A DNA stretch of 64,000 nt, from NCBI GenBank assembly GCA_944381075.1, contig CALWJT010000016.1:4155-68154 (forward strand). Reading direction: 5' to 3'. Shown piece after piece: positions 4,301-43,141 of this stretch. The stretch is from an uncultured Clostridia bacterium. Its GTDB lineage: Bacteria; Bacillota; Clostridia; Oscillospirales; CAG-272. The position numbers and the translations under genes are program-made. The notes beneath the pieces were generated by a model. That model had not been told where the DNA came from. It saw only the letters and a list, made by a program, of their open reading frames with translations, and did no database searches. Numbering within the stretch: position 1 is the first letter of the stretch; every line of letters starts with the position of its first letter.

Positions 4301-4558
4301 CTGTTTAACCATGATGAGCGTGTTATTGCCGCTTTTGCTAAACTAACTGCCGCACATCGTTTCAACAAAATGCAGCTTGACCTTTTGGAAAAAATCAAAA
4401 CCTATATGCTGCACGAAAGTATTTTGAATACGGAAACCTTTGAAGCCCCCGCATTTAAGATGGAGGGCGGTTTTGCCCGCTTCAACAAAAAATTCGGCGG
4501 CACGCTCGCCGACATTATTCGGGAGATCAACACTTACATTTATGAAGGAGCCGCATAA
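1322..4558 (+). CDS. hsdR: Type I restriction-modification endonuclease subunit R (EcoKI-like)
   Basis: GGAGGA RBS before ATG 1322; ADY...DAKK nuclease motif, MATGTGKT Walker A, DEAH, LTATP, QMLGRATR. Confidence 0.95.
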   Translation: MKSNFEFLNRYWPVLSQLGANAENYLYSDSNACIYKLGMFAERLVQEILVFEHMDEPKTDNTHANRIRLLKRAGLLPHEIDNTLYVLRKTRNSAVHAGTDSVDEAKTLLSMTYNLAVWFMETYGDWGFLAEDFIMPEEVQQADLKLVIEDQEKKIAELSKKLAEVTTAVSGTTQKERAKRAETVSFMIQWNEAQTRRLIDEQLRKAGWEADTTNLRYSKGTRPAKGRNIAISEWPTNSAFYKNGYADYAFFIGEKLVALMDAKKASEDVASTIDVQVKDYAKHIKEEHARYVIGSWGDYQVPFLFASNGRAFLEQLRTKSGIWFLDARKTSNQSYPIRNWFSPSDLEEKLSQDIDKANENLSNYNDSFMEDPTGLNLRDYQMKAVNKATEAIMNGSRTALLAMATGTGKTRIVLGLIYKMLESKRFQRILFLVDRIALGEQAMDTFKDVKLKDLMTLNEIYEIKDIEDNEINLETKVSVSTVQGLLKRTILSETPDLMPGAFDLIIVDEAHRGYILDKEMTEEEILYDNQDDYMSKYKQVIEYFDAVKIALTATPALHTTEIFGEPIFTYSYREAVIDGWLVDHDPPYIINTDFIENKAKFKKGETLAQYDPNTHELINGTVLQDELDFDVSEFNKKIVLPDHTRKVLEEISNYINPESGEKTLIFAVNDNHADCIVDTLRDIYKPYGISNEAIMKITGKTAGGNKKKILQVIKQFKNNQYPNIAVTVDLLTTGIDVPAICNLVFMRKINSRILFEQMLGRATRLCPEIGKTHFNIFDAVRVYEDLDPTSGMKSVSVNKTMSELLEDLFRGSGENKQPVKDRILARIQRKNNDLTPEQKYEVTERLGGINLRAYVHKLKSCTEKVFIETCKKDKDFLLWVDSLKGRKKGYFYSEKEDTLKETTRGYGNTEKPEDYLEAFTKFVNENKDKIEAIRIACTKPSSMTRAQLKELKLALDKENFTETSLNEATSAVTNAHIVADIIAHVRKAVLKTPLFNHDERVIAAFAKLTAAHRFNKMQLDLLEKIKTYMLHESILNTETFEAPAFKMEGGFARFNKKFGGTLADIIREINTYIYEGAA

Positions 4559-18794: not shown

Positions 18795-18823
18795 TTGGAT
18801 TTCATACAGAAAAATTTGAAATA

Positions 18824-18860
18824 AAAAGCGGTCCGCCCCAATATGGGCGGACCGCTTTTT
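18824..18860 (+). terminator. Intrinsic (bidirectional) terminator
   Basis: aaaaagcggtccgccc-caatat-gggcggaccgcttttt. Confidence 0.85.
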
Positions 18861-19005
18861 ATTTGCTCGGCAGCTTTCATCATCTATGAAAAGACGGAGC
18901 AAGTACTTTTCTTTTTATACCTCCAATTCAAGTATAAATACCGGTGCGCTTTCCCATAAAAATAGTCTCCGAAAAGATATAAAACTTTTCGGAGACTGCC
19001 AAGGA

Positions 19006-19329
19006 TCAAGATAAAGCGGCCATCATTCCCAACATTATCAACATACCGAAGATGGAGCTGGCAATCGAACAAAGCTCCCCGATGATACTGACGATCAAAC
19101 CGGAAACACTGCCCGAACACTTATATTCCTTTACGCCAAGAACAATCCCGATAATGGAAAGGATATGTCCGATCAAAGCAAAAAGCCATCCAAACAGGAT
19201 CCCAAGGATGCCAAGGATCAAAGGCACCGGGTTAAAAGACCGATTTTCTTCTTTTGCCGGGGTTCCGCAGTTTGGGCAAAACGAGGAAGAGTCCTCCATT
19301 TCATATCCGCATTGCTTACAAAATTTCAT
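19006..19329 (-). CDS. Zinc-ribbon domain membrane protein
   Basis: MKFCKQCG...FCPNCG followed by hydrophobic helices. Confidence 0.8.
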   Translation of the reverse strand: MKFCKQCGYEMEDSSSFCPNCGTPAKEENRSFNPVPLILGILGILFGWLFALIGHILSIIGIVLGVKEYKCSGSVSGLIVSIIGELCSIASSIFGMLIMLGMMAALS

Positions 19330-19479
19330 CGTATTCGCCTCCCTGTCTAAAAATGCACAATTGGTACTTTAAATTGTATCATTCTATTCTATATTTGTCA
19401 ATATAAAATGATATCCCTAAAATGAACGGACAATTTTACGGCATTCCGTATATATAAAACTTTAAATTCTTATGAATGG

Positions 19480-26034: not shown

Positions 26035-27117
26035 CTATCCTTCCCCCGTCTCTCCGGCGTCCTGAGCCATGATTTTCATGAACGCGCGCAGCGCCGTCGG
26101 AACCGCATAATGGTCTCGAATGATCTGCGCCCTCTCCCAGATAAAATTTTCCGCCGGACTGGTACATTCCGCAAGATAGCCCGTCATATGCCACTCCACG
26201 TGAGTAAAAACATGGACGGCCTCTGCGCAGGGCTCACAGGAAAGCACGTCGGTCCCCAGCGTCCTCACATATTCTGCCGCCTCGTCAGGCGTCAATTTGC
26301 CCAAGACATTCGGAAACTCCCAAAGGCCGGCGAGCAGTCCGCCCGCCGGCCTTTTACGGACGGCATAGCGGCCGCGGCAGGAAAGCAAAAATACCGTGCG
26401 CTCCTCTTTTCTGCGCTCCTTTTTCGGACTTTTTACCGGAAGCATTCCCGTCCAGCCTCTGCGCTTCGCCTCACACTGCTTCCGCAGGGGACAATGCTCA
26501 CACCGCGGCTCTCCGTTCGGAATGCACAGGTTCTCCCCCAGTTCCATGATCGCCTGCGTAAACAAGCCTGCCTCCTCTCCGGACGGATATATAGCCCGAA
26601 GGCCCGCAGCGACCTGCGTTTTCACCGCAGGAGACGTGATATCCGCACGGCATCCGAGATACCGCATGACGACGCGGAGCACATTCCCGTCCACGGCAGG
26701 CTCCGGCAGACCGAAAGCGATCGACGCGATCGCTCCTGCCGTATATTCCCCTATACCGGGAAGCGACAGAAGCGCCGGCAAAGTATCCGGCAGCTTCGCA
26801 TCGTAGGAATCTACCAGGATTTGAGCCGCCTTTTTTAAATTTCTCGCCCTGCTGTAATATCCAAGCCCTTCCCACAATTTCATGAGTCGTTCGTCGGAGA
26901 CCGAAGCCAGCGCAGATACCGTTGGCAACTCACAGAGGAACCGCTCATAATATGGGATCACCGCCGCCGTTCTCGTCTGCTGCAGCATGATTTCCGAGAC
27001 CCATACATGATACGGCGTTGCGTCTGCCCGCCATGGAAGCGCTTTTTTATTTTCTGCATACCAGGAAAGAAGCGGCGCCGAAAGCTCGGACAAGCGCTCA
27101 GTCCGTATCTCCTCCAT
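26035..27117 (-). CDS. mutY: A/G-specific adenine glycosylase
   Basis: LPWR, WVSEIMLQQT, WEGLGYYSRARNL, HhH LPGIGEYTA, VDGNVLRV, C-x6-C-x2-C-x5-C, LWEFP. Confidence 0.95.
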   Translation of the reverse strand: MEEIRTERLSELSAPLLSWYAENKKALPWRADATPYHVWVSEIMLQQTRTAAVIPYYERFLCELPTVSALASVSDERLMKLWEGLGYYSRARNLKKAAQILVDSYDAKLPDTLPALLSLPGIGEYTAGAIASIAFGLPEPAVDGNVLRVVMRYLGCRADITSPAVKTQVAAGLRAIYPSGEEAGLFTQAIMELGENLCIPNGEPRCEHCPLRKQCEAKRRGWTGMLPVKSPKKERRKEERTVFLLSCRGRYAVRKRPAGGLLAGLWEFPNVLGKLTPDEAAEYVRTLGTDVLSCEPCAEAVHVFTHVEWHMTGYLAECTSPAENFIWERAQIIRDHYAVPTALRAFMKIMAQDAGETGEG

Positions 27118-27459
27118 TTCCAAGATCCCTCCGTTTTTGCGTTATCGGTCAGATCCGTATTCCAATCCCCATCCGATCCGTTTTTATCGATACCGGTAGT
27201 ATAACATAAACAGCAGCAGATTTCAATTCCTTTTCCGTCTTTCCCCAAGGCCGGCTTTCTCTTTTTTTCTGCCGGAGAATACGGGTCTTTCCCTCCGTAC
27301 AGCCTCTGTTCCATTCCAGCAATCTACGCCCGCAGCCGGCCCATGCTGTCATCGTTTTTCAGTACCGCCGTGCAAATACGCTGTCAGCGTTCCGCCAATC
27401 CGCACAGCCTCACGAGAGAGCCCGCCGCGGAAAAGAACGCGTATTCTCTTTCTTCCCTC

Positions 27460-27695
27460 CTTAATATAAAATACTCGCTTGACGTAGTTTAAAAATTCTA
27501 CTAGGTCCACTTCTTTCTTTATAGCTTTCATATCCTAAACTTATTTAAGAGGGGGGTAAACAAAATATTAGCGACGATTCCAATAAGCGATACAAGTATC
27601 ATCCATGGATCCATCGAAATCATTAAAGAAACAACGGTAGCAACAGATAAAATATTTCCTATAAAATTAGTGATGTTTTCAATATTTGACACAAC
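27460..27695 (-). pseudogene. Fragment of a second ABC exporter membrane domain
   Basis: ...SLMISMDPWMILVSLIGIVANILFTPLLNK/.../LNYVKRVFYIKE resembles TLDPFILIIIAVMVVVSFF...SEYIKKVSHFKD of 31010..32830; frameshifted and truncated. Confidence 0.45.
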
Positions 27696-27719
27696 TCATG
27701 CTGTTAAATCATTTATAAC

Positions 27720-27842
27720 TTATGTATATCTATTATAAAAATCCGGGTTATCCAAATCCTTCATGTCGACATGAAAGTTTGAACAATCGTCAAAACTCTC
27801 CATAAAATTGCACAGCTCTACTGACTCTCTAAGTATCTTCAT
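27720..27842 (-). CDS. 40-aa small peptide, candidate second RiPP precursor
   Basis: AAGGAGGTG RBS before ATG; MKILRESVELCNFMESFDDCSNFHVDMKDLDNPDFYNRYT*. Confidence 0.6.
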   Translation of the reverse strand: MKILRESVELCNFMESFDDCSNFHVDMKDLDNPDFYNRYT

Positions 27843-27961
27843 TTTTTCACCTCCTTCTCAATTTTCGATTTCAAGTCATTCTTTTAGGGAAATAAACACT
27901 CTCTATTTAGCAGATAATAAAAAATTTTCTGCTATTTCTCCCGATCTATGACCGGAAATCG

Positions 27962-28883
27962 TTATACAGAGTGATGATGGAAATAATAGTTCTGCATGGC
28001 TTCGTAAATATCCTCTTCACGCCATAAACATGGCTTTGCACATCTCTCAATTCGCTCCCGCTTACAACTCCCTACACAAATAGGCAAACATTTACACCGC
28101 TTACAGTCTTCAAAGTTTTCAAATTCAAATACGCTTCTTTTCCACAGATATCTTTGAAAATCCTGATATGGTTTTCCAAGACCGGAAGAACTCAGCTTGA
28201 TATTTTCAAAACCGTCTTCCGAAAGTATTCCGCCCCACAATACATTGTCACAGTCAAGCACGATACATTTCTTTGATATTCCGTATGTAATCAGGTATTA
28301 TTTATATATTTCCAAACTGATTTTTTTCAGATAACGATTGACTGTACGGATAATTCCATCTGTACTTGTTTTTGATGCTATATTCGTTCGATATTCCGAC
28401 GGATGCAATCAGGCGTTTGGTATCGATAAACGTGATTTCGGAGTCAAACTCTTCTCGTATTTGAACGTTGATTTTGTCCACCAATCCATTCGAAGCATAC
28501 TGCGAACCGAACACAAAGGAAGAATTCCATTGCCAATCTTCATATCCGAACCATAATACAGATGCCTTGGAATTTTTTCTGATTGCCTCCCAGATGCGAT
28601 GTGCTTTTTCAAGTTCAAAGTCAACAATCGCGCTTACCTCTGTCAACGAATCCTCATCCAACACCCCCGGGTATGTGTCCTCAAAACTCAAAAGAATTAC
28701 GACAAAATCGATCTCGGCAAATCATTGTAACGACTTAGTCGAACAATATTCATCGTAATTCACAGTGTCTATTCTAATCCGAATTCCGTTTTGCTCAAAT
28801 ATCCGATTGGCAGACGGTACCAAAAACGGTTCGACAGACAGATTGGAGACAAAGGACAGCTCAAATAAAGATTTTTCCTGCAT
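27962..28883 (-). pseudogene. FkbH-like HAD-IIIC protein remnant fused to a radical SAM SPASM C-terminus
   Basis: ATG 28883 with GAGGTG RBS, in-frame TGA 28722-24, frameshift near 28325; KCIVLDCDNVLWGGILSEDG...YQDFQ (FkbH motif I) runs directly into CKRCKCLPICVGSC...C. Confidence 0.75.
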
Positions 28884-28897
28884 AGATTCACCTCATC

Positions 28898-29176
28898 TTA
28901 TGGATCCCTGGATTCAAGAACCGATTTATTGCTTTCGCTGACAGCAAGTTGGAGCACCTCCAACATCTTGTTAACCGAATTCATTTCGGTCAATAGCAAT
29001 TTTTCATCAGGTATCTCACATTCAAATGCTTCTTCAAGCGACACAACAATTTGAATGAATTTGATAGAATCCACTCCCAACTCCAGCAGATCGTTATCAC
29101 ATTGATCTACGGTCACTTCCATGTCTTGAACGGAATTAACGATTTCCAGTATTTTTTCTTTTGTTATTTCTTTCAT
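28898..29176 (-). CDS. Acyl carrier protein
   Basis: ELGVDSIKFIQIVVSLEEAF phosphopantetheine motif; start overlaps upstream stop. Confidence 0.88.
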   Translation of the reverse strand: MKEITKEKILEIVNSVQDMEVTVDQCDNDLLELGVDSIKFIQIVVSLEEAFECEIPDEKLLLTEMNSVNKMLEVLQLAVSESNKSVLESRDP

Positions 29177-30087
29177 TCGCTTATCCCCAGAAAGACTCGC
29201 TTATTGATTGCGATCTTTTCCTTATCCCGTTCTGTTAGGGTCTCTTTGATCAGTTCGTAAAGATGATCCGAATCAAGCCTTGTTTTGAAGTCACACTTCC
29301 ATTCACGCCGTTCCTTTTCGCATAAACCGTAGCTATTCAGAAGTGCCTCTCCCACCGGTGTTCTGAATGCTTCTATGTACTGCTTTAATACATCGTCATC
29401 AAATACCTGACCTGTATAGTATAAGACATAAAAAACATAGGGGATAATCTCATATTCGACACTCATGGTATACAGTTTGTCTAAAGATATCGCGTCAAGA
29501 TTATTTTTCAGCAAGTAATATACATCCTTGAACATATCGTATCTGATGCTTTTCCTGGTTGCGAGCAGAAAAAGAGAGTTTATGTCTTTATAGTGGTGAA
29601 GAATAAGATGAATCATTGCTTTTATCGGGGGCAACGTTTTCACTTTGACACCGTAAATCTCCATTTCTATTGTGTCTGACAGGAATTCCTCAATGTCTAT
29701 TCGCTTGCCTTCATATTCTCCCCAAAAGATGTCATAATTTAAGTCTATATAAATAGCATTTCCGTTTATATTTTTTATATATGGTAATAATTGGTGTGAA
29801 TTGGTAAGTACAAAAATTCTATCTTCTCTGCTATAATTAGAATATATATTCATAAAACCATTTGCTTGTAAGACCTCTTCAAGTTTTTTTAGAGTTTTTC
29901 GCGAAACTAATATATCAATATCATTGTACAAACGCATGCCGTTTTTCTGATATGCTTCAATCGATAATGGCTCTCCTTTTACTATAGCAAATAAGTATTG
30001 TTGTGTATCAATGAGTAATTGTGATAACTGTTTGTAAAGAAACTTGCCTTCAATTAGATTCTTCATCCGAATAGCTTCTTGAATCAT
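29173..30087 (-). CDS. Nucleotidyltransferase family protein (NTP_transf_5-like)
   Basis: IVKG...Y...R..NDIDILV, HLILH, FKDVY. Confidence 0.8.
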   Translation of the reverse strand: MIQEAIRMKNLIEGKFLYKQLSQLLIDTQQYLFAIVKGEPLSIEAYQKNGMRLYNDIDILVSRKTLKKLEEVLQANGFMNIYSNYSREDRIFVLTNSHQLLPYIKNINGNAIYIDLNYDIFWGEYEGKRIDIEEFLSDTIEMEIYGVKVKTLPPIKAMIHLILHHYKDINSLFLLATRKSIRYDMFKDVYYLLKNNLDAISLDKLYTMSVEYEIIPYVFYVLYYTGQVFDDDVLKQYIEAFRTPVGEALLNSYGLCEKERREWKCDFKTRLDSDHLYELIKETLTERDKEKIAINKRVFLGISE

Positions 30088-30090
30088 GAT

Positions 30091-31017
30091 TTATACTACC
30101 TCGTTTAAAATATAATAATAAAATTTTTCAGAGCATTGATGAATGCAAAATAGATCATCACAAATATCCAAATATTTAAACGGAATGTTTTGAATAATAT
30201 AAATAAATAACGAGGAATTCAGTATGTTTTTAACATGTTCAGGCAAAAGGTAGCTAATTCCAACGACATTATTCAACAGTAAACTTTTCTTTTGTAATTC
30301 ATTGTCTATATTCTTTACTTCAATCCCGATTTTATTTCTAACTCTCCGTAAAAAAAATATGCATTTTAAATTGAATATTCCAGAAATATTTCCAAACCCC
30401 AAGTTAAGGCATCGGCTTTCTATAAATTTTTTCCCTTGTAAACTTTCTTTTGCAGTAACAAATATATTATCTTCATTTGAAAGGCTTTTAAATGTACTGA
30501 AGTTCATTTTTAATGGCATACTATTAGAAAAACATGAAATAATATTATTAGTCCTTGTTAAGTATAGTGTATCGTCTGAAAAAACATTTGTAAATTTTGT
30601 CAAATGTGAAACAAAAGTGGTTTTTCCAACGCCCTTATCCGCGCAAAATGCTATAATTTTTTTATTACACTCAATACTGCTTGCATGAAGCAGGATATCT
30701 TTACAATTATGTGCCAAAATAGAAAAAGGCAAATTATAGAGTGTGGATTCAAGTTCATTTTTATTTTTATAATATGCCTTAATCCTATTGTTTTCCACAT
30801 CAATAACATATGAAGTAAGTGGCGATTCAATAATATAATCCTTATTATTTTTCGTGCAATAAATTTTTTCATTGTCGAATGTTTTTTCATTATGGCAAGA
30901 TAAATCTATGATACAATCTGACATAAAAAAGTTTTCATTGCATTTAGGAAGAAAACTAAGTGGTATATTAGATTTTAAAATAAATTTATAACAATTATAA
31001 ACATACTGTTCATTCAT
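30091..31017 (-). CDS. HPr-kinase-like P-loop protein (candidate peptide kinase)
   Basis: LLHASSI...FCADKGVGKTT...FSDD. Confidence 0.75.
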   Translation of the reverse strand: MNEQYVYNCYKFILKSNIPLSFLPKCNENFFMSDCIIDLSCHNEKTFDNEKIYCTKNNKDYIIESPLTSYVIDVENNRIKAYYKNKNELESTLYNLPFSILAHNCKDILLHASSIECNKKIIAFCADKGVGKTTFVSHLTKFTNVFSDDTLYLTRTNNIISCFSNSMPLKMNFSTFKSLSNEDNIFVTAKESLQGKKFIESRCLNLGFGNISGIFNLKCIFFLRRVRNKIGIEVKNIDNELQKKSLLLNNVVGISYLLPEHVKNILNSSLFIYIIQNIPFKYLDICDDLFCIHQCSEKFYYYILNEVV

Positions 31018-32830
31018 ATTCTTTAATCACCTTATTAATCTCATAGGCGTGCGCCTGCTTTTCAAACATATCACGGTAATAACTGTTCGGATCGGAACAT
31101 AATTGCTCATGTGTTCCAGATTCAATAATTTTTCCGTTATCAATCATTATAATTTTATCAGAGCAAACCGTCGTTGTTAGTCTGTGCGAAACAAATAAAG
31201 CAATCTGATCAGATGTCATTTGCATGATTTTTTCATTAAGCTTAAACTCTGCAAACGGGTCAAGAGAACTATTTGCCTCATCTAAAACAATAACTGACGA
31301 ATTTCGAATATAAGCCCTTGACAAAGATAGTTTTTGTAACTCGCCACCAGAGAAATTGACCCCGTTTTCATCAAATTCCCGCCCGATATTTGCATCTATT
31401 CCCCCATCAATACCTTTAATCTTATGAGATAGTCCGCTGAACTCCAATGATGCCTGGATATCTTTTTCATTATAAACTTCTCCCATTGATATATTCTCTC
31501 GAATGGAAAAAGCGAAGATATTGTAATCTTGCATGACTGTTGCAAAACATTTCCTTAAATTAACAATATTATAGTTTTTAATATCAGCGTCGTTTATCAA
31601 TATCTCCCCATCGGTTACATCGTACAGTCTTAATAATAGCTTGATAATAGTTGATTTCCCGGCACCGTTTCTTCCAACTATCGCTACCTTTTCACCAGAT
31701 GTTATACGAAATGATATATTGTCCAGAATCAGTTCATCGTGATGCGGATATTTAAAAAAAACATTTTTGAACTCTATGGAAATAATCTTTTCAATACTTT
31801 TTTTATCTTCAATATCGTTTTCAATTGATGGCTGATAATCCAAGATTCCGCGTAAATGTGACACATAATATTCGCTTTCAAAATTTAATCGGTCAAAAGA
31901 ATTGATAATACCAGCCAATTCACCTGAGATTTGATAACACGCTGAAAACAACACGGTGAAACTGCCGAGTGTAATATCTCCGGTAATCGTTTTAAATGCA
32001 ATATAACCTAATAAAACAGGTGCTATCATTAAAGTATTTATTACACTGATAATGTATTTAAACCTCCAATATTTCGCTTTTGTTTCTTTGTATATTTTAT
32101 ACTTTTCAACAAATGTTTCATTAAGTTTATTAATTAAGAACTGCCCTAAGTTATAGAGCCTTACATCTTTGGCGAAATCTTTGAAATGAGAAACCTTTTT
32201 TATGTATTCTGATTTTCTGTTAATTGTTTCCTCTGCTTCATACTGCTCCTGGGAATATCGGCTTGATCTGTTTTGATCAAAAAATGATACAACAACCATA
32301 ACCGCAATGATAATAAGTATAAACGGATCTAATGTAATTATAATTGACGATAGCAGAATTACATTGAATACATTTTTGGCAATAGAAAAAAGTATATTTA
32401 AAAAGTCCAAGGCTTTTGTATCAGCATACCTTATCGCTTTCGTATAATTATCATAAAATTTGAAATTTTCATAGCACTCCAAATCTTGTTTCATGGCTTT
32501 TTTTATAAATACATTCTGCAAATTATTTCGCAACTTATATTCTCTGCTTGATATAATAACATTGCTTATAATGGTAGAAGCGGAATACAAAATGAAAGAA
32601 ATTACCTGCAGAATAATGATATGCCTGATAACAATATTAAAAGAGTTTTTCGCCGTAATAGAATCTATGATCCACTTAATATATAAAGTTCCGACTGCAG
32701 TTTGAAGCGTTGCAATAATTAACGAAATGAATTTTAACGGTATTATAAATTTATCGCCATTCCAAATATATTTTAACATTAACTTAATATCAGCGATTGT
32801 GATTTTTAGGGGATGCTTTTTATTTGTCAT
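31010..32830 (-). CDS. ABC exporter, fused permease/ATPase (no C39 peptidase domain)
   Basis: TM helices, GRNGAGKST, FSGGELQK, VLDEA, SHRL; GGAG RBS before MTNKK at 32830. Confidence 0.93.
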   Translation of the reverse strand: MTNKKHPLKITIADIKLMLKYIWNGDKFIIPLKFISLIIATLQTAVGTLYIKWIIDSITAKNSFNIVIRHIIILQVISFILYSASTIISNVIISSREYKLRNNLQNVFIKKAMKQDLECYENFKFYDNYTKAIRYADTKALDFLNILFSIAKNVFNVILLSSIIITLDPFILIIIAVMVVVSFFDQNRSSRYSQEQYEAEETINRKSEYIKKVSHFKDFAKDVRLYNLGQFLINKLNETFVEKYKIYKETKAKYWRFKYIISVINTLMIAPVLLGYIAFKTITGDITLGSFTVLFSACYQISGELAGIINSFDRLNFESEYYVSHLRGILDYQPSIENDIEDKKSIEKIISIEFKNVFFKYPHHDELILDNISFRITSGEKVAIVGRNGAGKSTIIKLLLRLYDVTDGEILINDADIKNYNIVNLRKCFATVMQDYNIFAFSIRENISMGEVYNEKDIQASLEFSGLSHKIKGIDGGIDANIGREFDENGVNFSGGELQKLSLSRAYIRNSSVIVLDEANSSLDPFAEFKLNEKIMQMTSDQIALFVSHRLTTTVCSDKIIMIDNGKIIESGTHEQLCSDPNSYYRDMFEKQAHAYEINKVIKEYE

Positions 32831-32927
32831 TTTAATCTCCATTCTGTCGCTTTGAGTCAGCACAAATAGTGATGAAAAAGTGCCGGATAGCGGCGATTTT
32901 GTAACAAAATTGTTGTAAAATACATAT

Positions 32928-33320
32928 GCAGGAGTATATATCAAACCTGCGTTAGTGCAAGTCGCTCACGTAGCCGTAAAAGCCACAGACAATTCTTACT
33001 ACCGCTTAAAGTATGATCAAATCTCCAAACGCAGAGGGAAGAAACATGACATTATTGCCATTGCACGGAATGATCCTCACTGCTGTTTTCCCAATTATAG
33101 CAAGGACTAAGATGTGGTCAAACCTTGCTTTTGATGAACCACCGTTGCCTGCTTAATAGCTTTGGACAAAAGCTTTTCTCAAGAAGTTTACCTTAAAAAG
33201 ATCGGTGGGATTCCAGACCTAACCCGTGGCTATATTCGCTTTCGTTAACTCTGCAAAGAATTGTTTTGTGCAGGGCTTTCTTGTTGCACTTTCTCGGCGG
33301 CAAGTGATTCGTATCTTTCA
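32928..33320 (+). mobile_element. IS110-family transposase remnant, internally rearranged
   Basis: Plus strand AGVYIKPALVQVAH...KRRGKK...IIAIAR/MILTAVF; the following C-terminal piece (VWNPTDL...KAIKQA...QGL) lies on the minus strand at ~33105-33222. Confidence 0.7.
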
Positions 33321-33322
33321 CG

Positions 33323-34654
33323 CTATTTTCTTCGAATGGATTTAATCATGTAATTATACTTATTCATTAGGACTTCTGATGTAACAATAAAATCATTTGG
33401 GCAACGATTATTACCATTTATAATTCTCGATTTAGGACAATTCTGAGCAAAACAAACAGGCAAATTGATGCATTCCTTGCATTTGTTTTCAAGTTCTATT
33501 TTTCCATTTGGCAAAACAAAACGGCTCCATTTATATAAATTAAATTCTATTCTTTCATTCTCAATTGTTCCTACAACATTAAATTTATCAAGTTCTTCAT
33601 CTTCTTCGTTGCATTTTCTTAATTTTCCATCGCTCCCTAATGTAAAGTGATATGGCAACCCAGCATAGCAAACTCGTTTGAATGGATTATAATAATTATA
33701 ATTTGTTAAGGGTTCTATCCCTTTTTTAATCGCCTCTTCCATTAACATAACTGTCGTGTACGGTTCTATAGAATAATCAATAACATCAAGAGCTTCATCG
33801 TTCTCGCCTCCCCATTTACCAATAGTATGAAAAAACACGGTAAACCTACTATCAAGATTATCTTTTATTGCATCAAACAGTTCATTTATACCAGCAAATG
33901 TTTCGTTATTATAGTTCACTCTGATAGAAATATGAAAATCAAACTCTTTAAAAGAATTAAAAGTTTTTAAATTATCAAATATTATATTCCATGTAGGTCG
34001 TCCATCTGATAATGGTCTGTTGCTATTATGAGTTTCTTTATCTCCATCTATTGTAATTTGGAAAAAATCAAATTGATTGTTCAATAGATATTCAATCTGA
34101 TCTTTAGAAAATAAAGATCCATTTGTTGTTGCGCCATAATGATATCTAACATTTTTACCGTAAAAAAAACTATTCAAATTATCAGTAACTTTCTTTATTA
34201 TATCAAATGAAATGAATGGCTCTCCACCAAACCACTCTATATAAAAATCTTTTAACCCATGATCATAATAATAATTTTTTATTGCTTTTATAAATTTATC
34301 TATATTTTCATCAGAAATTACTTTTTTGCCATGTTCTTGATAACAATATTTACATCTAAAGTTGCATATATTGTTGGGCATTATTATAAAAGACAAATTT
34401 GTAGGATCAAACATTTGTTTATAATATGATGCCATCACTTCTTGCACTTCATCAATATCATCAGGAACACAAAACGCTTTTTTAAATATGTCATTTTCTA
34501 TATTATCACAGTCTTTTTTCTTTAAAGATAAAAGATCTCCTTTAAGTTTTTCTTCTTCATTATTGACAAAAATTTGTGCTCCATTTTTCATATTATATAA
34601 TAATACGCCATCTTCTACTTCATGTATTACTGTATATTTTGATATTTTTAACAT
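33323..34654 (-). CDS. Radical SAM/SPASM peptide maturase
   Basis: CNFRCKYC, WFGGEP, TTNG, ITIDG; SPASM CYAG...C...CKECINLPVCFAQNC...C; N-terminal RRE-like segment; AAGGAG RBS. Confidence 0.93.
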   Translation of the reverse strand: MLKISKYTVIHEVEDGVLLYNMKNGAQIFVNNEEEKLKGDLLSLKKKDCDNIENDIFKKAFCVPDDIDEVQEVMASYYKQMFDPTNLSFIIMPNNICNFRCKYCYQEHGKKVISDENIDKFIKAIKNYYYDHGLKDFYIEWFGGEPFISFDIIKKVTDNLNSFFYGKNVRYHYGATTNGSLFSKDQIEYLLNNQFDFFQITIDGDKETHNSNRPLSDGRPTWNIIFDNLKTFNSFKEFDFHISIRVNYNNETFAGINELFDAIKDNLDSRFTVFFHTIGKWGGENDEALDVIDYSIEPYTTVMLMEEAIKKGIEPLTNYNYYNPFKRVCYAGLPYHFTLGSDGKLRKCNEEDEELDKFNVVGTIENERIEFNLYKWSRFVLPNGKIELENKCKECINLPVCFAQNCPKSRIINGNNRCPNDFIVTSEVLMNKYNYMIKSIRRK

Positions 34655-34735
34655 ATATATTTTCTCCTTAAATTAAATAATACCATTCAGATGGTCGGGA
34701 CTAAAACTTAAACTTATTCCGACATTAGTTGTGGT

Positions 34736-34775
34736 ACAACATAGAACTTTAGTTTTGAATAAGCTCTATGTTGTA
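34736..34775 (-). terminator. Stem-loop between precursor and maturase genes
   Basis: tacaacatagaactt...aagctctatgttgta inverted repeat just 3' of the precursor stop. Confidence 0.6.
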
Positions 34776-34783
34776 CCCGCATT

Positions 34784-34906
34784 TTAACTACCGCAGGAAC
34801 CTTGACATCCATTGCATTTGCCCTTGCAACCACAATTAGTGTCACATCCTGGAGGGCAATTGCCATTCGATCCATTTAATGAATCGATATCAGATAAGAA
34901 ATACAT
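34784..34906 (-). CDS. Cys-rich RiPP precursor peptide (40 aa, not in ORF track)
   Basis: AAAGGAG RBS; MYFLSDIDSLNGSNGNCPPGCDTNCGCKGKCNGCQGSCGS*; directly upstream of the rSAM gene. Confidence 0.85.
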   Translation of the reverse strand: MYFLSDIDSLNGSNGNCPPGCDTNCGCKGKCNGCQGSCGS

Positions 34907-35589
34907 GTTTTTTCTCCTTTCACTATAAAATTATGTTACAGCACAAAACTATTATCTTTATGCCAAAACATCAAATGGTCTTTGAATAATAATTCGCTTG
35001 TCTTTATATTTTCAATTCAGGTTATTTTCAAAAAAAAAAATTTTGTAAGGTTTAATAAACAAAATGAACTTCAAAAACTGCGTGATAGCCATAATAAATT
35101 ATTCTGTCCGATTTCCAGGTGAAGAAGTTGATACTTTACTCCGAAGTATTGATTTCTGGAAAATTCAACACTTGTTTTTCGTCGCTTGTAAACTCAACTT
35201 TTAAATCTTTTTGTAATTTATTATATCTTTATTGCTAAACGTTACATAATATAGGCAAGCTAATCATAGCCTCATGGCATGATACGATATTAAAAATGCG
35301 ATAAAAGAATATCCTATCTTAGGACGCAATGCGCTTTTAAAACAGTATTATAATTATGGCAAACAAAAATTACTTGGAGAAGGAGAATATCCGTCACACA
35401 AATTATACAGAAAATCAATTAAATGATTGTGATAAGCACCATGTGAATATACTACATTTCAAAACCTCACTGATGTTACCAGAAGCCGTTTCCTCTATTT
35501 TTTGTTTATATGATAACTATTTAAGGATAGCGGAGCTCCGAGCGAGACAGACGCAGAATCGTGCATCAACGGGTCACGTAGCAAAGCTG

Positions 35590-35790
35590 CATTCAAGTTC
35601 GGTGGTGAAAAGTTCTTCCGGTATCCAAGCCACTTACATGGCGGTCCGTTGATGATGTCCGCAAAGATCATGACCTCATCGGCAGTGTAGTCGGCGATAC
35701 GCTCTCTCTTTGGGATAAAACGATGTAGCATTCGATTGTGGCATTCAACAGTGCACTTCTCTCATGACCGGTGCGGGTGCGTACGGTGTC
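35590..35790 (-). mobile_element. IS30-family transposase C-terminal remnant
   Basis: ECHNRMLHRFIPKRERIADYTADEV...INGPPCKWLGY resembles the IS30 tail E..N..IRRFIPKG...N..PRK.LGY. Confidence 0.7.
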
Positions 35791-36100
35791 CCAGATACAC
35801 TTTTTGCCCCGAGTCCGCTTTGTATCTCTGTGCCCGACCGTGATAAAAGGCTATAGTTCCGCATTAAATCTAATTCTTAATTGTGTTGTAAGATCATCCG
35901 AGGTGTCTCGCAACCCGTAGATTGACTAGCCGTTCTTTTCGATGCCCCTCAATTTCGTGTCATTCTTCCGAGGTTGCGAGTGGGCATGGCATTCGCGATA
36001 TTCTGTGATATAATAGGCGTTGTATATAACAATCATCCCTCTGGAATTTGGAACCGTTGCAACTTTATTTTTGCAATTGCGCTACATGTTGGAGATTTAA

Positions 36101-36149
36101 AAACCCGCACAAGTGCGCCATAACTCAGTGCATGCACTTGTGCGGGTTT
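36101..36149. repeat. Perfect 16-bp inverted repeat
   Basis: aaacccgcacaagtgc (36101-16) / gcacttgtgcgggttt (36134-49). Confidence 0.8.
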
Positions 36150-36416
36150 AGAAGTCTCGGGTGGGAAATGCTGATTGCACTTGCGCTTGGGAGACATTAG
36201 GTTTTTATGAGCTTTTACTAAATTAAGTGTAACATGAGCGTCATATTTTGTCAATACAAATATTTCCATTACATGCAAAATCGTGGACATACACAAAAAA
36301 TAATGAAAATCCATGCTGTTATACTTGGTTTTTTGTGCAGTATTGATATAATTTATACAAATTGCACAAAAGAAGACGATTAGGATGTTGAATGGTAACC
36401 ACTGATCCATTTTCTC

Positions 36417-37050
36417 TTATGTTGCCGTTACCACCATCGTTGTGCTTGTTTTCATCCTGAACATACACGCATCTGTTTTTCCATCTTTCCGTTCTGTAAG
36501 CGTGCCGGTCAAATGTTTCAGATACATTCTGTTCAGCGCCGAAGTACCGAGGAAAGCCTTCACATTTGTCACAGGAAGGACACACCATTCGCTGTCGGTT
36601 GGTTTGTTAGCGATATAGTATTCGAGTAGCGTCCTTGTTACATTCAGCGGAACAGACTTTGGCGTGACAGCGGCAAGCCTCTGTTCTTGTTCTTCCGTTA
36701 GGGTAATCGATTCTTGCCGCAATGCACCCAGCTCCAGCGCATCTGCAATCACATCATCAAAGCGAAGAATCAAATCCCCCTTTGTTCCTTCCGAAAAGAT
36801 CGGGATTTGGTATTGTATGACCTTCTTACGCCAAGCATCCTCCAGTTTTTCGATGTTGCCGACAATTTTTTGTGTGGTCTTGCCTACCTTGTCGCGGCTG
36901 GCGTTAATAAAATCTACGATGCCGTGCAAGTGCCGGATAGCTGTTCTCGTCTACAAGCTCCGGAAACTCATCGTGAAGTTCACGGAAATCTGTTTTGAAC
37001 TGCCACTCCGCCTTCGGGGTGGCATCCTTTTTGTCCGGAATACTGCAGTC
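36417..37050 (-). pseudogene. Frameshifted hypothetical gene downstream of the RNAP-like gene
   Basis: Coding-like frames IPDKKDATPKAEWQFKTDFRELHDEFPEL / ...YYIANKPTDSEWCVLPV; 5' end lost. Confidence 0.5.
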
Positions 37051-38700: not shown

Positions 38701-38985
38701 TCGGCTTTGCATAGGAGAGCATCGCCGCTAAGACCGGCATGGGAGACGGCGAATACTTGCGCGTCTCGGCGCTCGGAAAGACAATCTACTAGGTCGAGGA
38801 ACTCAAACCAATCCTTCATGAGCTGAAAGGCATCGGCAGAAATCTCAATCAGCTCACCATGCTGTGCCATCAGGGCGTGATCCACATGGTAAACCTGACC
38901 GCAACATCCGATGCCATCAGGCGATGCTATCAAGCAATAAACAAGCTCTGTGCCAGCACGGACGGCGTCATAGGAAGCGGTGATG
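38700..38985 (+). pseudogene. mobC: MobC relaxosome accessory protein remnant
   Basis: YLRVSALGKTIY*VEELKPILHELKGIGRNLNQLTMLCHQG; GxNxNQ motif; in-frame TAG and no 5' end. Confidence 0.7.
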
Positions 38986-39846
38986 GCGACCGTTATTTTT
39001 ATCAAGGAAAGCAAACAACCCCCCAGTGCTATGCGGGGTTGCATCAACTATTGCGTGCAGGAAAAGAAGACCGTAGATTCTAACGGTCGGCAGTATGTGG
39101 GCGGTGTTAACTGTTTAGGTAAGTACGCATATGAAGAATTCATGGCGACAAAAAACCTTTATGGCAAGGCATCGGATATCTATTTTTATCAATATGTGCA
39201 ATCCTTTATGCAGGGTGAGATCCAGTCTTATGACGAAGCTCACCGCATAGGTATGGAGTTTGCCGAGCAGTTCTTTCCGGGTTATGAGGTGCTGGTAGCA
39301 ACGCACCCGGATGCTTACGATGATAGCGGCGTTCAGCGCGTGCATAACCATTTTATTGTCAATTCGGTCAGCTTTGAGGATGGCAGAAAGATTCACTTCA
39401 CGCCTAACACTTTACAGGAGCTAAGAAAAATCAGTGATTCCATCTGCGCGGAACATGGATTTTCTGTCCTCTCTCCCTCCGAGCGAACTTACGGCAAAGC
39501 CATCGGCACACGGGAATACCGGACAACCATGAAGGGGAACGGCCGGAAATTCCAGCTCATCAATGACATTGACACCGCCATGACACAGGCGGGAGACAAA
39601 CGCGAGTTCTGTGATACCCTCGCCTCTGCCGGTTATACCGTCACCTGGACGGATACAAGAAAATATATCGCATTCACCTGCCCGAACGGAATGAAAGTTC
39701 GGGACAACAAATTACACGATAACAAATACAGAAAGGATATTTTAGAGTATGAATTATCAATCAGACAACAGCTTACAGAACAACACCCTGCGTCAAGCCC
39801 AATGGAGCGGCTAAAGCGGCATCCAAGACTGCGGTCAGGACGATAG
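38980..39846 (+). CDS. MOBP-type relaxase/mobilisation nuclease (probably 3'-truncated)
   Basis: N-terminal Tyr in CINYCV, QYVQSF, VLVATH...VHNHFIVNSVSFEDG 3H motif. Confidence 0.85.
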   Translation: MMATVIFIKESKQPPSAMRGCINYCVQEKKTVDSNGRQYVGGVNCLGKYAYEEFMATKNLYGKASDIYFYQYVQSFMQGEIQSYDEAHRIGMEFAEQFFPGYEVLVATHPDAYDDSGVQRVHNHFIVNSVSFEDGRKIHFTPNTLQELRKISDSICAEHGFSVLSPSERTYGKAIGTREYRTTMKGNGRKFQLINDIDTAMTQAGDKREFCDTLASAGYTVTWTDTRKYIAFTCPNGMKVRDNKLHDNKYRKDILEYELSIRQQLTEQHPASSPMERLKRHPRLRSGR

Positions 39847-39849
39847 AGG

Positions 39850-40296
39850 AAACGCTGTATCAGCCGATCGTCTATGCGATTCCGAAGGAGGACTGGAACG
39901 CCTTCAGGGAGTGGGCGAAACAAGCGGTAACATTTCAACCGACTGTATCAGCAGATAGCGGCGCTGACGACCAAGAAGGAGTCAGAGGCTTACACGGACG
40001 AGATGTGGAACAAGATACAGAACTGGTCGAGGAAGTTTACAGAACAAGTGAAACCGTCCTCGGAGAGCATCGTGCCGAGGGTGAACAAATTGCTCTACGA
40101 CAACAAGGAACTTTTGCAACAGGATGGGAAAGCGGGAGACGAGTTTATTTCGAATCTCAATGTGCGAGAGCAGACGCGGATCGACAAGTACGAAGAATTG
40201 CTTATGAAGACGAAACGGTGGATCATCACGGCGATCGCATCGACCATCGGCAGTTCGGCGATTTTGAGCACGGTGATCTGTCTCTTGATGAGATAA
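39850..40296 (+). pseudogene. Fragment of a hypothetical protein with a C-terminal membrane helix
   Basis: Frameshifted coding-like sequence ending KRWIITAIASTIGSSAILSTVICLLMR. Confidence 0.4.
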
Positions 40297-40299
40297 GAG

Positions 40300-41109
40300 C
40301 GTTCTTCCGGGATGAACAATCGGAAGATGACCGTCTTTGCAACGACCCGCCCGAAACGGACGGATGGACAAAGCAGAAATATTACGACCTACGGGAGCAG
40401 GCAGAGCTTGGCAACAAATATGCCGAGTACCGCCTCTCCCGCCTTTTGTTTGACGAGAACAGCCCTTATTACGACAGCTATGACGGAGCCTGCTACTTGG
40501 AATCGTCCGCCAAAAAGGGGTACTATGGCGCAATATCGGCTCGGCAAGATGATCTATCAGGGCGACTATTACCGCCAAATGCCCGAAAACGCGGCGTATT
40601 GGTTGATCTTATCCGCAAAACAGAACAATCCCTACGCAGAGATGCTTCTCGGTCAGCTGTATATTCTCGGGGATTTTCTGCGACTTGACAAAAAGGCGGG
40701 CTTTGGTCTTCTGTATGATGCCATCAGTGACGCCAACGCCGCTTATACCCTCGGAAAATATTATGCTGAGGGTAAGCACTTGAAGAAAAACATTCCGAAA
40801 GCGATTGCTTTACTGGAGCAAGCAGCACAGATGGGCAATCCGTTTGCAGAATACCGACTTGCCAAGATCTATCCCTTTGAATCAGACTATTTCGATTGGC
40901 ATGAACACGGCAGCACACAAGGGCAACGAAAACGCCTACCGGGCATTGCAGAATATGAACCGCAATCCTGTTTCTCTATCACGACCCGGATAGCAGACCT
41001 TATCGGCGATCTCTCTGCCACGTTCGACAAAAGACCGGCGGTGAAAGATTGCACGACCATGCCGCAACGCAAAGAAAGGAAGAAATATGAGTATGAGCAA
41101 TGTATGTAG
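40300..41109 (+). pseudogene. Sel1-repeat protein, frameshifted
   Basis: AELGNKYAEYRL, AQYRLGKMIYQG, SAKQNNPYAEMLLG, AAQMGNPFAEYRLA spread over two frames. Confidence 0.7.
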
Positions 41110-41145
41110 CCGAGCAAATTTATCACATTTTTATGAAAGGGGGCG

Positions 41146-41370
41146 ATGCTTATCAGCCGGACGAAAGAAACGATGCAAGGTATGAAAGAACGATTCAGCG
41201 GCATGCCGACAAGCAGTCATGTAGTAGTTATTGACGGTATCCGCTATACCGTTGTCAGTCATTACACAGGAAGTAAGAATGTAGACCATGTAATCCGCAA
41301 AATAGCCGAAAAACAGGCACTGGCGGATATGAGCAGTCAAAACGGAAAAGAAGAAAAGATTTCGGCATAA
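41146..41370 (+). CDS. TnpW-like small transposon protein
   Basis: VIDGIRYTVVSHYTGSKNVDHVIRKIAE; sits directly upstream of the serine recombinase. Confidence 0.5.
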   Translation: MLISRTKETMQGMKERFSGMPTSSHVVVIDGIRYTVVSHYTGSKNVDHVIRKIAEKQALADMSSQNGKEEKISA

Positions 41371-41476
41371 ATTTGCCGAGTTAACAATTAGCAGCTTGCT
41401 TTGTCATGTGCTTTGTGGTATCATAAAGGCACATACAAATCAGGCTGCTTTGACATGACAGAAAGGATTTTATTGG

Positions 41477-43141
41477 ATGTCAAAGCAAACACAAAACAAA
41501 AAAGCAGGTCTATTACAGATTGTCACAAGAGGATGAACGAGCAGGTGAATCCCCGTCCATTGAGAATCAGAAAAAGATACTTGAAAAGTACGCCCATGAA
41601 AACGGTTTTGAGATCGTTGACGAGTATATCGACGACGGCTGGAGTGGTACAAACTTCAACCGCCCTGGCGTACAGCGGCTACTGGAGGATGCCAAGAACG
41701 GCAGGATCAATGTCATCATCGTCAAGGACTTGAGCCGTTTCGGAAGAAACTATATTGAAGTCGGGCAATACACGGATTATCTGTTCCCGACCTACAATAT
41801 CCGGTTCATTGCCGCAGGCGACAATGTGGACTCGGCTACGACCGAAAATTCGGGCATGGATATGACACCGATCATGAATGTATTCAACGAATGGCACGCC
41901 GCTAACACGAGCAAGAAAATCAAAGCGGTCATTGAAGCAAACGCCAAGGAAGGGATCTACCGTAGCAGCTATGCGCCGTATGGATATATTAAGGGCGATG
42001 ATGAAAAACGGTTGCCTGTTATAGACAGTGAAGCAGCAGCAAACGTCCGAAGAATATTTGAAATGCGGGCATCCGGTGTCAGTCCGAACCATATCGCGCA
42101 GACCTTCAATGATGAGGGCATCCTTCCTCCAGGGGACTAAAAAGAACAAAAGTTCGGTATTCCGAATACACGCAAGTCGCACCATTTACGGTCGAGCGCT
42201 ACGGTAAAGCAGGTTTTGACCAACCCCATTTATCTCGGACACCTCGTTCAGCCCCGCACTACGAATATTTCTTACAAGAACAAAACGCAGATCAAACGTG
42301 ATCCCGAAGATATGATATGGGTCTACAACACGCATGAAGCCATTGTGACACAGGAGTTGTGGGATAGGTGCCGTGAGATGGAAGCGTCGGTCAGTCAGGG
42401 TAAGAAAAACAAAACGGGATATGTCAATCCGTTGTCCGGACTCGTCTACTGCGCCGATTGCGGAAACAAGATGTATATCAAGTACAACAATACCCGACAC
42501 AAGCGTGGCGGCGAGAGAACCTACTACCGTCAGAACTTCACATGCGGCGCATATTCCAAATTGGGTGAGCGTGCCTGCACAAGTCACTATATCAAAATCG
42601 ATGTTCTTTCAGATATTCGCTCCAAAATGAACCTTGTGCTTACCGATGAAAAGCGGGCAAGAGAGGAATTCATCAGCCGTAACGAAAAACTCAGCACTGC
42701 TGAAGCCACCGCCGACCGCAAGAAGCTGAAGAATCCACGCACCGACTTGCCGAGCTGGACAAGCTGATCGGCTCGGTTTATGAGGACAAGGTGCTTGGTA
42801 AAATCCCCGAAGAAGTCTGTATCAACCTGCTGGAAAAATACCAGAAAGAAAAGAAATCTCTCACTGAAACGATCACCGCACCGGAGCAGAAAGCGCAGAC
42901 CATCCGTGATGATGCGGCGAACGCCGATGAATTCATCCGCAGGTTGAAAGCCTATATGGAAATTCCCCAGCTGACCTGCGAGATGTGCATAGAGCTGATC
43001 GAATTCATCCCCGTTGACGAGTGCCCCGGCAAGTATAGCAAAGCTCCCAGAGAGATCCATATCTATTACAAACTGATCGATAAAAAATCCTCCGCTGAGC
43101 AAATCGCTTCGTGGGGAGCAAATGGGAACGAAAAAGTGTGA
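41477..43141 (+). pseudogene. Large serine recombinase (TnpX/TndX-like), multiply disrupted
   Basis: YRLSQED...SIENQK, YIDDGWSGTNFNRPG, VKDLSRFGRN, YGY, NPIYLG, HEAIV, LSGLVYCADCG zinc ribbon; frameshift near 41510, TAA at 42138 and further frameshifts. Confidence 0.88.

Follow-up and report, generated by a model that had tools for sequence, protein, structure and literature searches.

The genome of an uncultured Clostridia bacterium contains a group of genes that probably directs the production of a peptide that is made on ribosomes and modified after translation (RiPP). The cluster lies within a 64,000 nucleotide stretch of DNA (GenBank assembly GCA_944381075.1, contig CALWJT010000016.1, positions 4,155 to 68,154), here called the window, to which coordinates refer unless another locus is named. 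Along the minus strand, and all in one orientation, are genes for a Cys-rich precursor peptide, a radical S-adenosylmethionine (SAM)/SPASM maturase, an ATP-binding cassette (ABC) exporter, an HPr kinase (HPrK)-type kinase, a nucleotidyltransferase (NTase), an acyl carrier protein (ACP) and a remnant of FkbH. The best explanation for this set, and one that we hold to be reasonably probable on sequence and comparative grounds, is a RiPP pathway in which the peptide would be cross-linked by the radical SAM enzyme, phosphorylated on Ser, decorated by the NTase and exported, with the FkbH arm inactivated in this copy.

The proposed pathway would begin with the binding of the 40 amino acid (aa) precursor by the radical SAM/SPASM enzyme through a short conserved leader. 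The enzyme would then cross-link the Cys-rich core, most likely by Cys-derived thioether bridges of the sactipeptide or ranthipeptide type, as its family resemblance suggests. A kinase of the HPrK/PEPCK fold would phosphorylate the invariant C-terminal Ser, and the PF14907 NTase-fold enzyme may extend or cap the phosphate, pairing with the kinase as PsmN does with PsmK. Co-conservation, sequence motifs and the pseudomycoidin precedent point to both of these steps. The ABC transporter would export the product. In intact relatives only, FkbH, the ACP and a module of CtaG-fold proteins may add a further step, which is dead in the window.

An earlier note on this DNA had listed the same co-oriented genes, described them as often overlapping, and read them as a cluster of the RiPP type that has a radical SAM/SPASM enzyme and no visible lasso cyclase or leader peptidase. 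This picture is supported. All of the listed genes are present on the minus strand, the ABC and kinase genes share 8 nt, and the NTase and ACP genes share 4 nt. Neither an Asn-synthase-like lasso cyclase nor a B1/B2 leader peptidase was found in Pfam/NCBIfam scans of the 12 open reading frames (ORFs) submitted across 27349-34906. Because the identical gene order recurs in unrelated contigs, the arrangement is, by sequence comparison, not a chance one. Loci fetched for comparison are given L-numbers (L004, L009 and so on), L088 and L089 being other loci of the same genome. The window clade is made up of L008/L009, with proteins 93–99% identical to those of the window. The metagenome contig L009, with DNA 94% identical to the window over 35044-28146, served as the reference for the pseudogene and dN/dS (nonsynonymous to synonymous substitution rate) comparisons.

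The precursor peptide and its maturase

The precursor gene (34784..34906, minus strand) is an ORF with a strong Shine-Dalgarno sequence GAAAGGAG and encodes 40 aa, of which 7 are Cys. The leader motif at the N-terminus of the peptide, M-[YF]-F-x-S-D, is conserved; the 7 Cys are in the core, spaced as CxxxC and CxC, and the last residue is Ser. Homologous small ORFs, all ending in Ser, precede the radical SAM gene in 7 other distinct loci, and a small Cys-rich ORF is found 5' of the radical SAM gene wherever the locus extends far enough to reveal it. With the two precursors of the own-genome paralog L088 added to the 8 distinct ones, the family set numbers 10, with the leader motif and the CxC/CxxxC spacing common to them. 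Every ATG ORF of at least 18 aa was listed for this set with no filter on the last residue, and 10/10 end in Ser. In L124 and L125 no Cys-rich ORFs other than the two counted here have a Shine-Dalgarno sequence, and both of these again close with Cys-Ser. The earlier note had pointed out the last Ser of the window precursor; that residue is there, and it is kept in 12/12 precursors found (the 10 unfiltered ones plus those of L124 and L125). A search of the precursor against 5.8 billion proteins returned itself as the sole match, which carries little weight because small ORFs are rarely called. The 6.2-kb contig L004 (1-6223) carries tandem precursor–radical SAM–ABC units with identical precursor copies and no kinase between the units.

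The gene that follows (33323..34654, minus strand) encodes a radical SAM/SPASM peptide maturase of 443 aa (PF04055, E 5e-13). The protein aligns end to end with SPASM peptide-maturase models and scores below every curated NCBIfam cutoff. Its best scores are 157.6 bits for TIGR04463 (cutoff 525) and 150.2 for CefB (cutoff 600), with 60.7 bits for SCIFF against a cutoff of 425 and 95.4 for PapB against 340. It is therefore no member of any named family. The CxxxCxxC radical SAM motif (C97, C101, C104) is invariant in 19 family members, as are the 7 Cys of the C-terminal SPASM region, where such enzymes bind two auxiliary Fe-S clusters (C329, C348, C392, C395, C401, C406, C418); the Pfam SPASM model itself gives no match to the protein at E<=0.01. 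By profile, the nearest solved relative is 5wgg/5why (E 9e-22), which we take to be CteB, the thioether-forming SCIFF maturase, followed by anSME and SkfB. The family is rare. Among 5.8 billion clusters there are 21 proteins at 48–88% identity, the next being at 34% or less, and the genomes of 185,579 species hold 4 loci. Plasmid searches returned no match for the cluster by megablast or for the kinase by tblastn, and radical SAM proteins there reach at most 29% identity.

Does the maturase form thioethers at all? Were its chemistry of another kind, the product could be a metal-binding peptide and no cross-linked bacteriocin or signal. The shortfall from the cutoff of every named thioether family would fit such a product, as would best matches that are uncharacterised 'Cys-rich' maturase models. 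So would a core in which Cys, Gly and Lys abound and the CxC/CxxxC spacing is regular, a pattern that we presume to be metallothionein-like. Yet the closest solved relative is a thioether former, as are many of the models that rank next (SCIFF, PapB, CcpM, RumMC), and the presence of an exporter of its own and of a leader motif agrees with a peptide that is modified and secreted. We regard the metal-binding peptide as improbable and thioether cross-linking as the chemistry that the family resemblance favors.

The ABC exporter (31010..32944, minus strand) is a fused permease and ATPase with no C39 peptidase domain, matching PF00005 and MsbA-type NCBIfam models over residues 75-624. Its likely start is the ATG at 32830, giving a protein of 605 aa; this ATG is preceded by a Shine-Dalgarno sequence, and homologs align from about residue 44 on.

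The kinase and nucleotidyltransferase pair

The fourth gene (30091..31017, minus strand) encodes a P-loop kinase of 308 aa, recognized as having the HPr-kinase/PEPCK fold by its family profile and its predicted structure. As a single sequence it matches TIGR04352 at E 0.0036 only and has no significant match in the PDB. An exhaustive search collected 175 representatives of the kinase family at E<=0.001. In an alignment of 125 family sequences H111, G131, K132, D148 and D149 are invariant. Weak matches among these 125 are to HprK_rel_A (82), HprK_rel_B (73), ScmC (19) and HPr(Ser) kinase (13), and 16 match Pfam Hpr_kinase_C; the window kinase itself scores 16.5 bits, where the cutoff is 200. 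Its AF2 model (pLDDT 94, pTM 0.92) finds by Foldseek PEPCK at E 3e-7 (TM ~0.5 normalised to the query) and the HPrK/P structures 1kkl, 1kkm and 1ko7 at E 6e-6 to 9e-6. When the family profile is compared with the PDB, generic P-loop matches dominate and HPr(Ser) kinase 3tqf appears at E 1.7e-4. We consider the assignment to the HPrK/PEPCK P-loop kinase fold, drawn from profiles and a model, to be sound, in agreement with the HPrK-like kinase of the earlier note. The C-terminal Ser of the precursor is its proposed substrate. A complex prediction of kinase and precursor scored 0.00 and has no weight either way.

Next to it is the gene for a short PF14907 (NTP_transf_5) nucleotidyltransferase-fold protein of 304 aa (29173..30087, minus strand). 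The match (E 3e-20, 73.2 bits) is above the Pfam gathering score of 31.2, so that the nucleotidyltransferase of the earlier note can be placed in a family. The KG and DxD residues of the NTase motif (K37, G38, D56, D58) are invariant in 12 homologs. A single-sequence search of the PDB with the NTase gave nothing significant.

Are the kinase and NTase tied to this maturase and its precursor? The earlier note had named a lack of such co-conservation as one result that would count against it. By tblastn and Pfam, the loci with a direct succession of ABC, kinase and PF14907 genes are L008/L009 of the window clade, L011, with a radical SAM protein 59% identical to that of the window, and L005, with one 52% identical. 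The full order of precursor, radical SAM, ABC, kinase and NTase is thus found in three lineages of the rare radical SAM family. L013 is too short for the full order and has a PF14907-like stretch upstream. L124 and L125 have the identical gene order but other radical SAM types. The kinase and the NTase are therefore co-conserved in three lineages; the ACP and FkbH are not, beyond near-identical copies.

The association was followed further with the kinase profile in 399 genomes of the class. A match was present in 122, mostly covering profile positions ~95-163 in frames of ~290-310 aa, and these short matches were taken to be the housekeeping HPr kinase. The 8 loci with the longest profile coverage (L124-L131) were kept as a class sample, leaving out contig-end fragments and short matches. 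PF14907 adjoins the kinase family in 8/8 of these loci, and a gene like those of radical SAM peptide maturases is beside the pair in five (L124, L125, L129, L130, L131). L127 has a lasso-type layout of PqqD, a transglutaminase-like peptidase, two kinases and the NTase, and L128 has the same ORF layout, two of its ORFs having been scanned. L126 has PqqD, and sugar-polymer genes (Polysacc_synt_2, Bac_transf) are beside the pair.

The sugar-polymer genes of L126 bring up another explanation, that the kinase, NTase, ACP and FkbH form a separate cassette travelling with peptide clusters and serving, for example, producer immunity, cell-envelope decoration or the making of a small molecule. FkbH and ACP are classic small-molecule parts. 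Additionally, the NTases of the window and L125 are 65% identical and their radical SAM proteins 32%, so the cassette moves as a module. Against a role apart from the peptide are the maturase-like gene beside the pair in 5 of the 8 class-sample loci, the PqqD and lasso-type peptidase gene of L127 with the similar ORF layout of L128, the overlap of the kinase start with the exporter stop in the window, and the invariant C-terminal Ser. According to the available text of the pseudomycoidin study, PsmK and PsmN also act on a peptide (PMC6993621). A cassette with a function separate from the peptide is, in our judgment, quite improbable, and peptide tailoring by the kinase and NTase remains the preferred reading.

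Several other features of these loci were seen. Long PF14907 proteins of ~500-710 aa with C-terminal extensions are encoded in L011 (14059-15582), L005 (14743-16437), L124 (7877-9376), L129 (3630-5165) and L130 (2945-5071). That of L005 has a weak CBM9 match, that of L130 has an N-terminal S24-like part, and none adjoins ACP and FkbH. In L124 a GT2 glycosyltransferase gene is downstream. Directly upstream of the family cluster in L005 (6921-9372) is a second peptide-type cluster with a 449-aa radical SAM protein and a PqqD-like ORF; a 262-aa P-loop ORF in it is a weak match to the window kinase (23% over 130 aa).

The carrier protein module and its loss in the window

The ACP gene (28898..29176, minus strand) encodes 92 aa with a GVDS phosphopantetheine-site motif (PF00550, E 1e-10, 42.1 bits, cutoff 20.8). 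Downstream is an FkbH (HAD-IIIC) pseudogene (28146..28883, minus strand), which by alignment to the FkbH of L009 still covers the N-terminal domain and reaches into the first part of the HAD domain. The L009 protein is intact at 542 aa (TIGR01686, 240.8 bits, cutoff 146.65). In comparison with L009, a CGA codon near 28724 is a TGA stop in the window, an A-run near 28325 is longer by one A (+1 frameshift), and no homology is left beyond 28146. The earlier note had called the FkbH arm dead here, and the stop, frameshift and truncation bear this out. No CtaG-like genes are present in the window, and the ACP is without a loading enzyme. A contig in an RNA library carries the intact continuation, in which 29 of 30 loose-end letters agree by reading with L009.

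Beyond the junction are remnants of a different cluster (27350..28145, minus strand), recognized in three-frame translation as a SPASM C-terminal tail and ABC membrane-domain fragments with stops. The SPASM tail is fused in frame to the FkbH start, generating a chimeric ORF (28261-27962; TIGR04085, E 1e-5). The picture in the earlier note is amended by these remnants. A contig from an independent DNA run bridges 27409-28651 with 0 differences, so the junction at 28146 is no assembly artefact. None of the fetched loci contains a relative of segment 28146-27250.

Behind FkbH in L009 are the genes of two paralogs of ~345 aa, neither with a Pfam match. The model of one of these, of 343 aa (pLDDT 90.9), gives full-length matches (E 1.5e-9 to 8e-6, TM 0.57-0.66) to AziU2/U3, CtaG and CcbD. 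This CtaG fold agrees with a protein-atlas look-up and with weak BtrH_N matches in 3/6 relatives; a single-sequence PDB search with the 343-aa protein gave nothing significant. The available text of one source describes CtaG, BtrH and AsbE as papain-like ligases that use donors bound to carrier proteins (PMC12865890). Such ligases have a Cys-His-Asp catalytic triad; across 28 sequences of the L009 345-aa family H122 is nearly invariant and no Cys is among the conserved columns, so ligase chemistry is not assured for this family. Distant CtaG-fold relatives also adjoin other SPASM clusters, including that of L088.

The module follows the type of NTase. With this radical SAM family, ACP and FkbH are found only in near-identical copies; otherwise they accompany the short NTase across different radical SAM types, as in L125, where the NTase is so much closer to that of the window than the maturase is. 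The short NTase (~300 aa) is followed by ACP and FkbH in 4/4 independent contexts, namely L009, L125, L131 and Clostridium perfringens plasmids, and one or two CtaG/BtrH-fold proteins are present in all 4. Long NTases (400-710 aa) have ACP and FkbH in 0/8 loci. On the C. perfringens plasmids, proteins annotated as 'hypothetical' match the profiles of the kinase (E 1e-19) and of the 345-aa family (E 5e-34).

What might such a module do? In the intact relatives it looks thiotemplated, with a glycerate-derived unit loaded on the ACP and passed on, presumably to the peptide. A speculative extension, in which we place limited belief, is that the intact forms (L009, L125, L131 and the C. perfringens plasmids) make a ribosomal-thiotemplated hybrid. 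PF14907 would there join the C-terminal phosphoserine of the radical SAM cross-linked peptide to a unit derived from glycerate, with FkbH and ACP delivering this unit and the CtaG/AziU-fold pair processing it. If true, this would mean a new RiPP subclass and a reaction for PsmN-type 'nucleotidyltransferases', and the window would be a natural knock-out of the last arm.

Additional observations concern loci with parts of the module. L132 (NZ_CP148674.1, 6221-27072) represents 56-kb mobilizable C. perfringens plasmids and contains genes for two radical SAM proteins, a signal-peptidase-like protein, a long PqqD-family protein, a kinase-family protein, two ABC proteins, an NTase 46% identical to that of the window, a VOC-family protein, an ACP, HAD-IIIC/FkbH and a CtaG-fold protein. 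Of the plasmid records with an NTase match, 13/19 are from Clostridium. In L009 the CtaG-fold gene pair occurs twice (2437-5694 and 17404-19478), on both sides of the cluster; of the second gene, the upstream copy is truncated and adjoins a serine recombinase gene of opposite strand. Repeats of this kind could allow the cluster to be lost or exchanged. The same genome as the window contains two more radical SAM/SPASM peptide-like clusters. L088 (contig C6, 1135-6037) has two Cys-rich precursors ending in Ser, a radical SAM protein 38% identical to that of the window, an ABC gene and a CtaG/BtrH-fold relative. L089 (contig C31, 5549-14241) has a radical SAM gene (29% identical product), behind which lie an ORF resembling an ACP, a pair of ABC genes and an ORF of 611 aa.

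Genomic setting and state of the window copy

The cluster is in a low-GC stretch (27.3-36 kb, 31–37% GC against ~50% in the surrounding genome region). This low-GC island extends to ~43.2 kb, and on its other side are mutY and ordinary chromosomal genes. A relaxase and recombinase region (38980-43141) within the island contains a relaxase ORF of the MobA/VirD2 type, no longer than 288 aa, and a large serine recombinase that is broken into three ORFs (41520-42140, 42216-42767, 42791-43141). Since the island holds a relaxase ORF and a fragmented serine recombinase, with chromosomal genes beyond, the cluster is the cargo of a decayed integrative mobilizable element in the Clostridia genome. The element looks immobilised.

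Is the cluster itself also decaying? It could be a relic that makes no product, with intact frames that erosion has simply not yet hit. The FkbH pseudogene, the adjoining fragments of a second radical SAM and a second ABC gene, the serine recombinase in three pieces and the missing leader peptidase and CtaG-like genes are all what a relic would leave, and relatives with split radical SAM genes exist (L006, L007/L015). However, six consecutive genes are intact, and dN/dS against the ~5% diverged copy in L009 is 0.07–0.26 (radical SAM 0.07, ABC 0.14, kinase 0.26, NTase 0.11, ACP 0.13). The form with the broken FkbH recurs with 0 differences in an independent DNA run, and identical contigs are present in an RNA library. 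Furthermore, L011, L005 and L124 have minimal clusters that lack ACP and FkbH, so that loss of this arm need not kill the pathway. A productless relic thus strikes us as rather improbable, and a RiPP pathway truncated at its last arm is preferred.

DNA of the window occurs in chicken-gut metagenomes of several studies. In one metatranscriptome, contigs match the window with 100% identity in 8 pieces of the 27-37 kb region; cluster parts that have no such contigs allow no interpretation. Because DNA carry-over is possible, these contigs are a weak hint of transcription. The window copy is degraded, so its own product is probably a simpler one, at most a cross-linked, phosphorylated and NTase-modified peptide.

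A number of points weigh against the proposed pathway. Thioether formation, phosphorylation, nucleotidylation and glycerylation are all inferred from the genes. The score of the maturase is under the curated cutoff of every family, which leaves room for a chemistry other than thioether formation. The C-terminal Ser is kept in L004 and in the own-genome paralog L088, where no kinase is detectable, and therefore the Ser may serve another purpose. (A likeness by eye to the kinase N-terminus in a 77-aa ORF after the ABC gene of L088 was rejected as unsupported, BLASTP E being 0.4.) The likening of the kinase and NTase to PsmK and PsmN is by the descriptions 'HprK family' and 'uncharacterized NTP transferase' in the pseudomycoidin paper only. 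The window lacks a leader peptidase, and the surrounding element is degraded, with its recombinase in three pieces and its relaxase ORF at 288 aa. In L006 and L007 (= L015) the radical SAM gene is split into two ORFs with kinase fragments only, so the family often decays.

Non-coding features of the cluster

Directly 3' of the precursor stop codon is a perfect 17-bp hairpin with no U-tract (34733..34777, minus strand). It folds at -25.1 kcal/mol (z -6.37), and 0/200 shuffles fold equally well. Its position between the precursor and the enzyme genes suggests that it is probably a transcript attenuation or stability element.

A further amendment to the earlier note is that a non-coding spacer of ~480 nt (32831..33322, minus strand) separates the radical SAM and ABC genes. 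The spacer is kept in L009; more distant family loci have a ~40-nt gap instead. It has no Rfam match, and a scan of 27000-37000 matched no Rfam family. The best predicted sigma-70-like site of the region is in the spacer (33121-33094, 11/12 matches, with TG); the promoter scan overall was not above shuffles, with 50 sites found against 42.6 expected.

Comparison with known systems

The closest parallel to the proposed tailoring is that of pseudomycoidin and paeninodin, which also combine a kinase of the HPrK superfamily, PsmK or PadeK, beside an NTase with a precursor ending in Ser and an ABC exporter. In the available text of the pseudomycoidin study, PsmK, of the HprK family, adds 1–3 phosphates to the C-terminal Ser, and the D158A/D159A change at its predicted metal site is inactive (PMC6993621). 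Phosphorylation of the C-terminal Ser in lasso clusters, given as background in the earlier note, is thereby described in print for PsmK. The same text states that PsmN, an 'uncharacterized NTP transferase', is needed for one or two hexoses on the phosphate and is inactivated by D134A/D136A, leaves the reaction of PsmN-type nucleotidyltransferases open, and gives the paeninodin cluster itself as being without a PsmN-type gene (PMC6993621). Unlike these systems, the window cluster has no lasso cyclase and no B1/B2 genes, and its scaffold enzyme is a radical SAM/SPASM protein acting, as proposed, on a Cys-rich core.

Ranthipeptides and sactipeptides (SCIFF/CteB, PapB, CcpM) share with the window cluster the CxxxCxxC motif and 7-Cys SPASM region of the maturase and the Cys-rich precursor just upstream. 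The radical SAM scores are far below the curated cutoffs of these families, however, and the precursor family has no model. A full-text literature search found no kinase/NTase tailoring of ranthipeptides or sactipeptides.

The intact relatives, with FkbH, ACP and a bipartite CtaG fold, resemble systems in which FkbH loads glyceryl units on an ACP and CtaG/BtrH/CcbD ligases act, and the two tandem paralogs of L009 are like the AziU2/U3 heterodimer. Those of CtaG, BtrH, CcbD and AziU belong to polyketide, aminoglycoside, lincosamide and closthioamide pathways, and no CtaG/FkbH-type system in a ribosomal peptide cluster was found in the literature search. The HprK-related kinases A and B and ScmC of SynChlorMet, which we take to lie in a radical SAM/SPASM cassette, are echoed by weak family matches and by the PqqD, transglutaminase-like, two-kinase and NTase layout of L127; all of these matches are far below cutoff. 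The full-text search, which did not extend to supplements and most subscription journals, returned no paper with 'HPr kinase' or 'HprK' together with radical SAM/SPASM and none with FkbH, RiPP and radical SAM. Within that literature there is no described product that combines a radical SAM peptide with a kinase and further decoration at the last Ser.

What appears to be new here is an unnamed radical SAM/SPASM peptide family with a kinase/NTase pair of the lasso type and, when intact, a carrier-protein module. Phosphorylation is rare among natural products, according to the accessible part of one source (PMC12639078). The occurrence of the kinase/NTase pair extends beyond lasso peptides, and the pair is a portable tailoring unit that is also used with radical SAM/SPASM peptides. 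Its short NTase subtype is strictly coupled to the ACP, FkbH and CtaG-fold module, which provides a testable handle on the chemistry. This coupling hints that gut Clostridia may have a class of peptide-thiotemplate hybrids.

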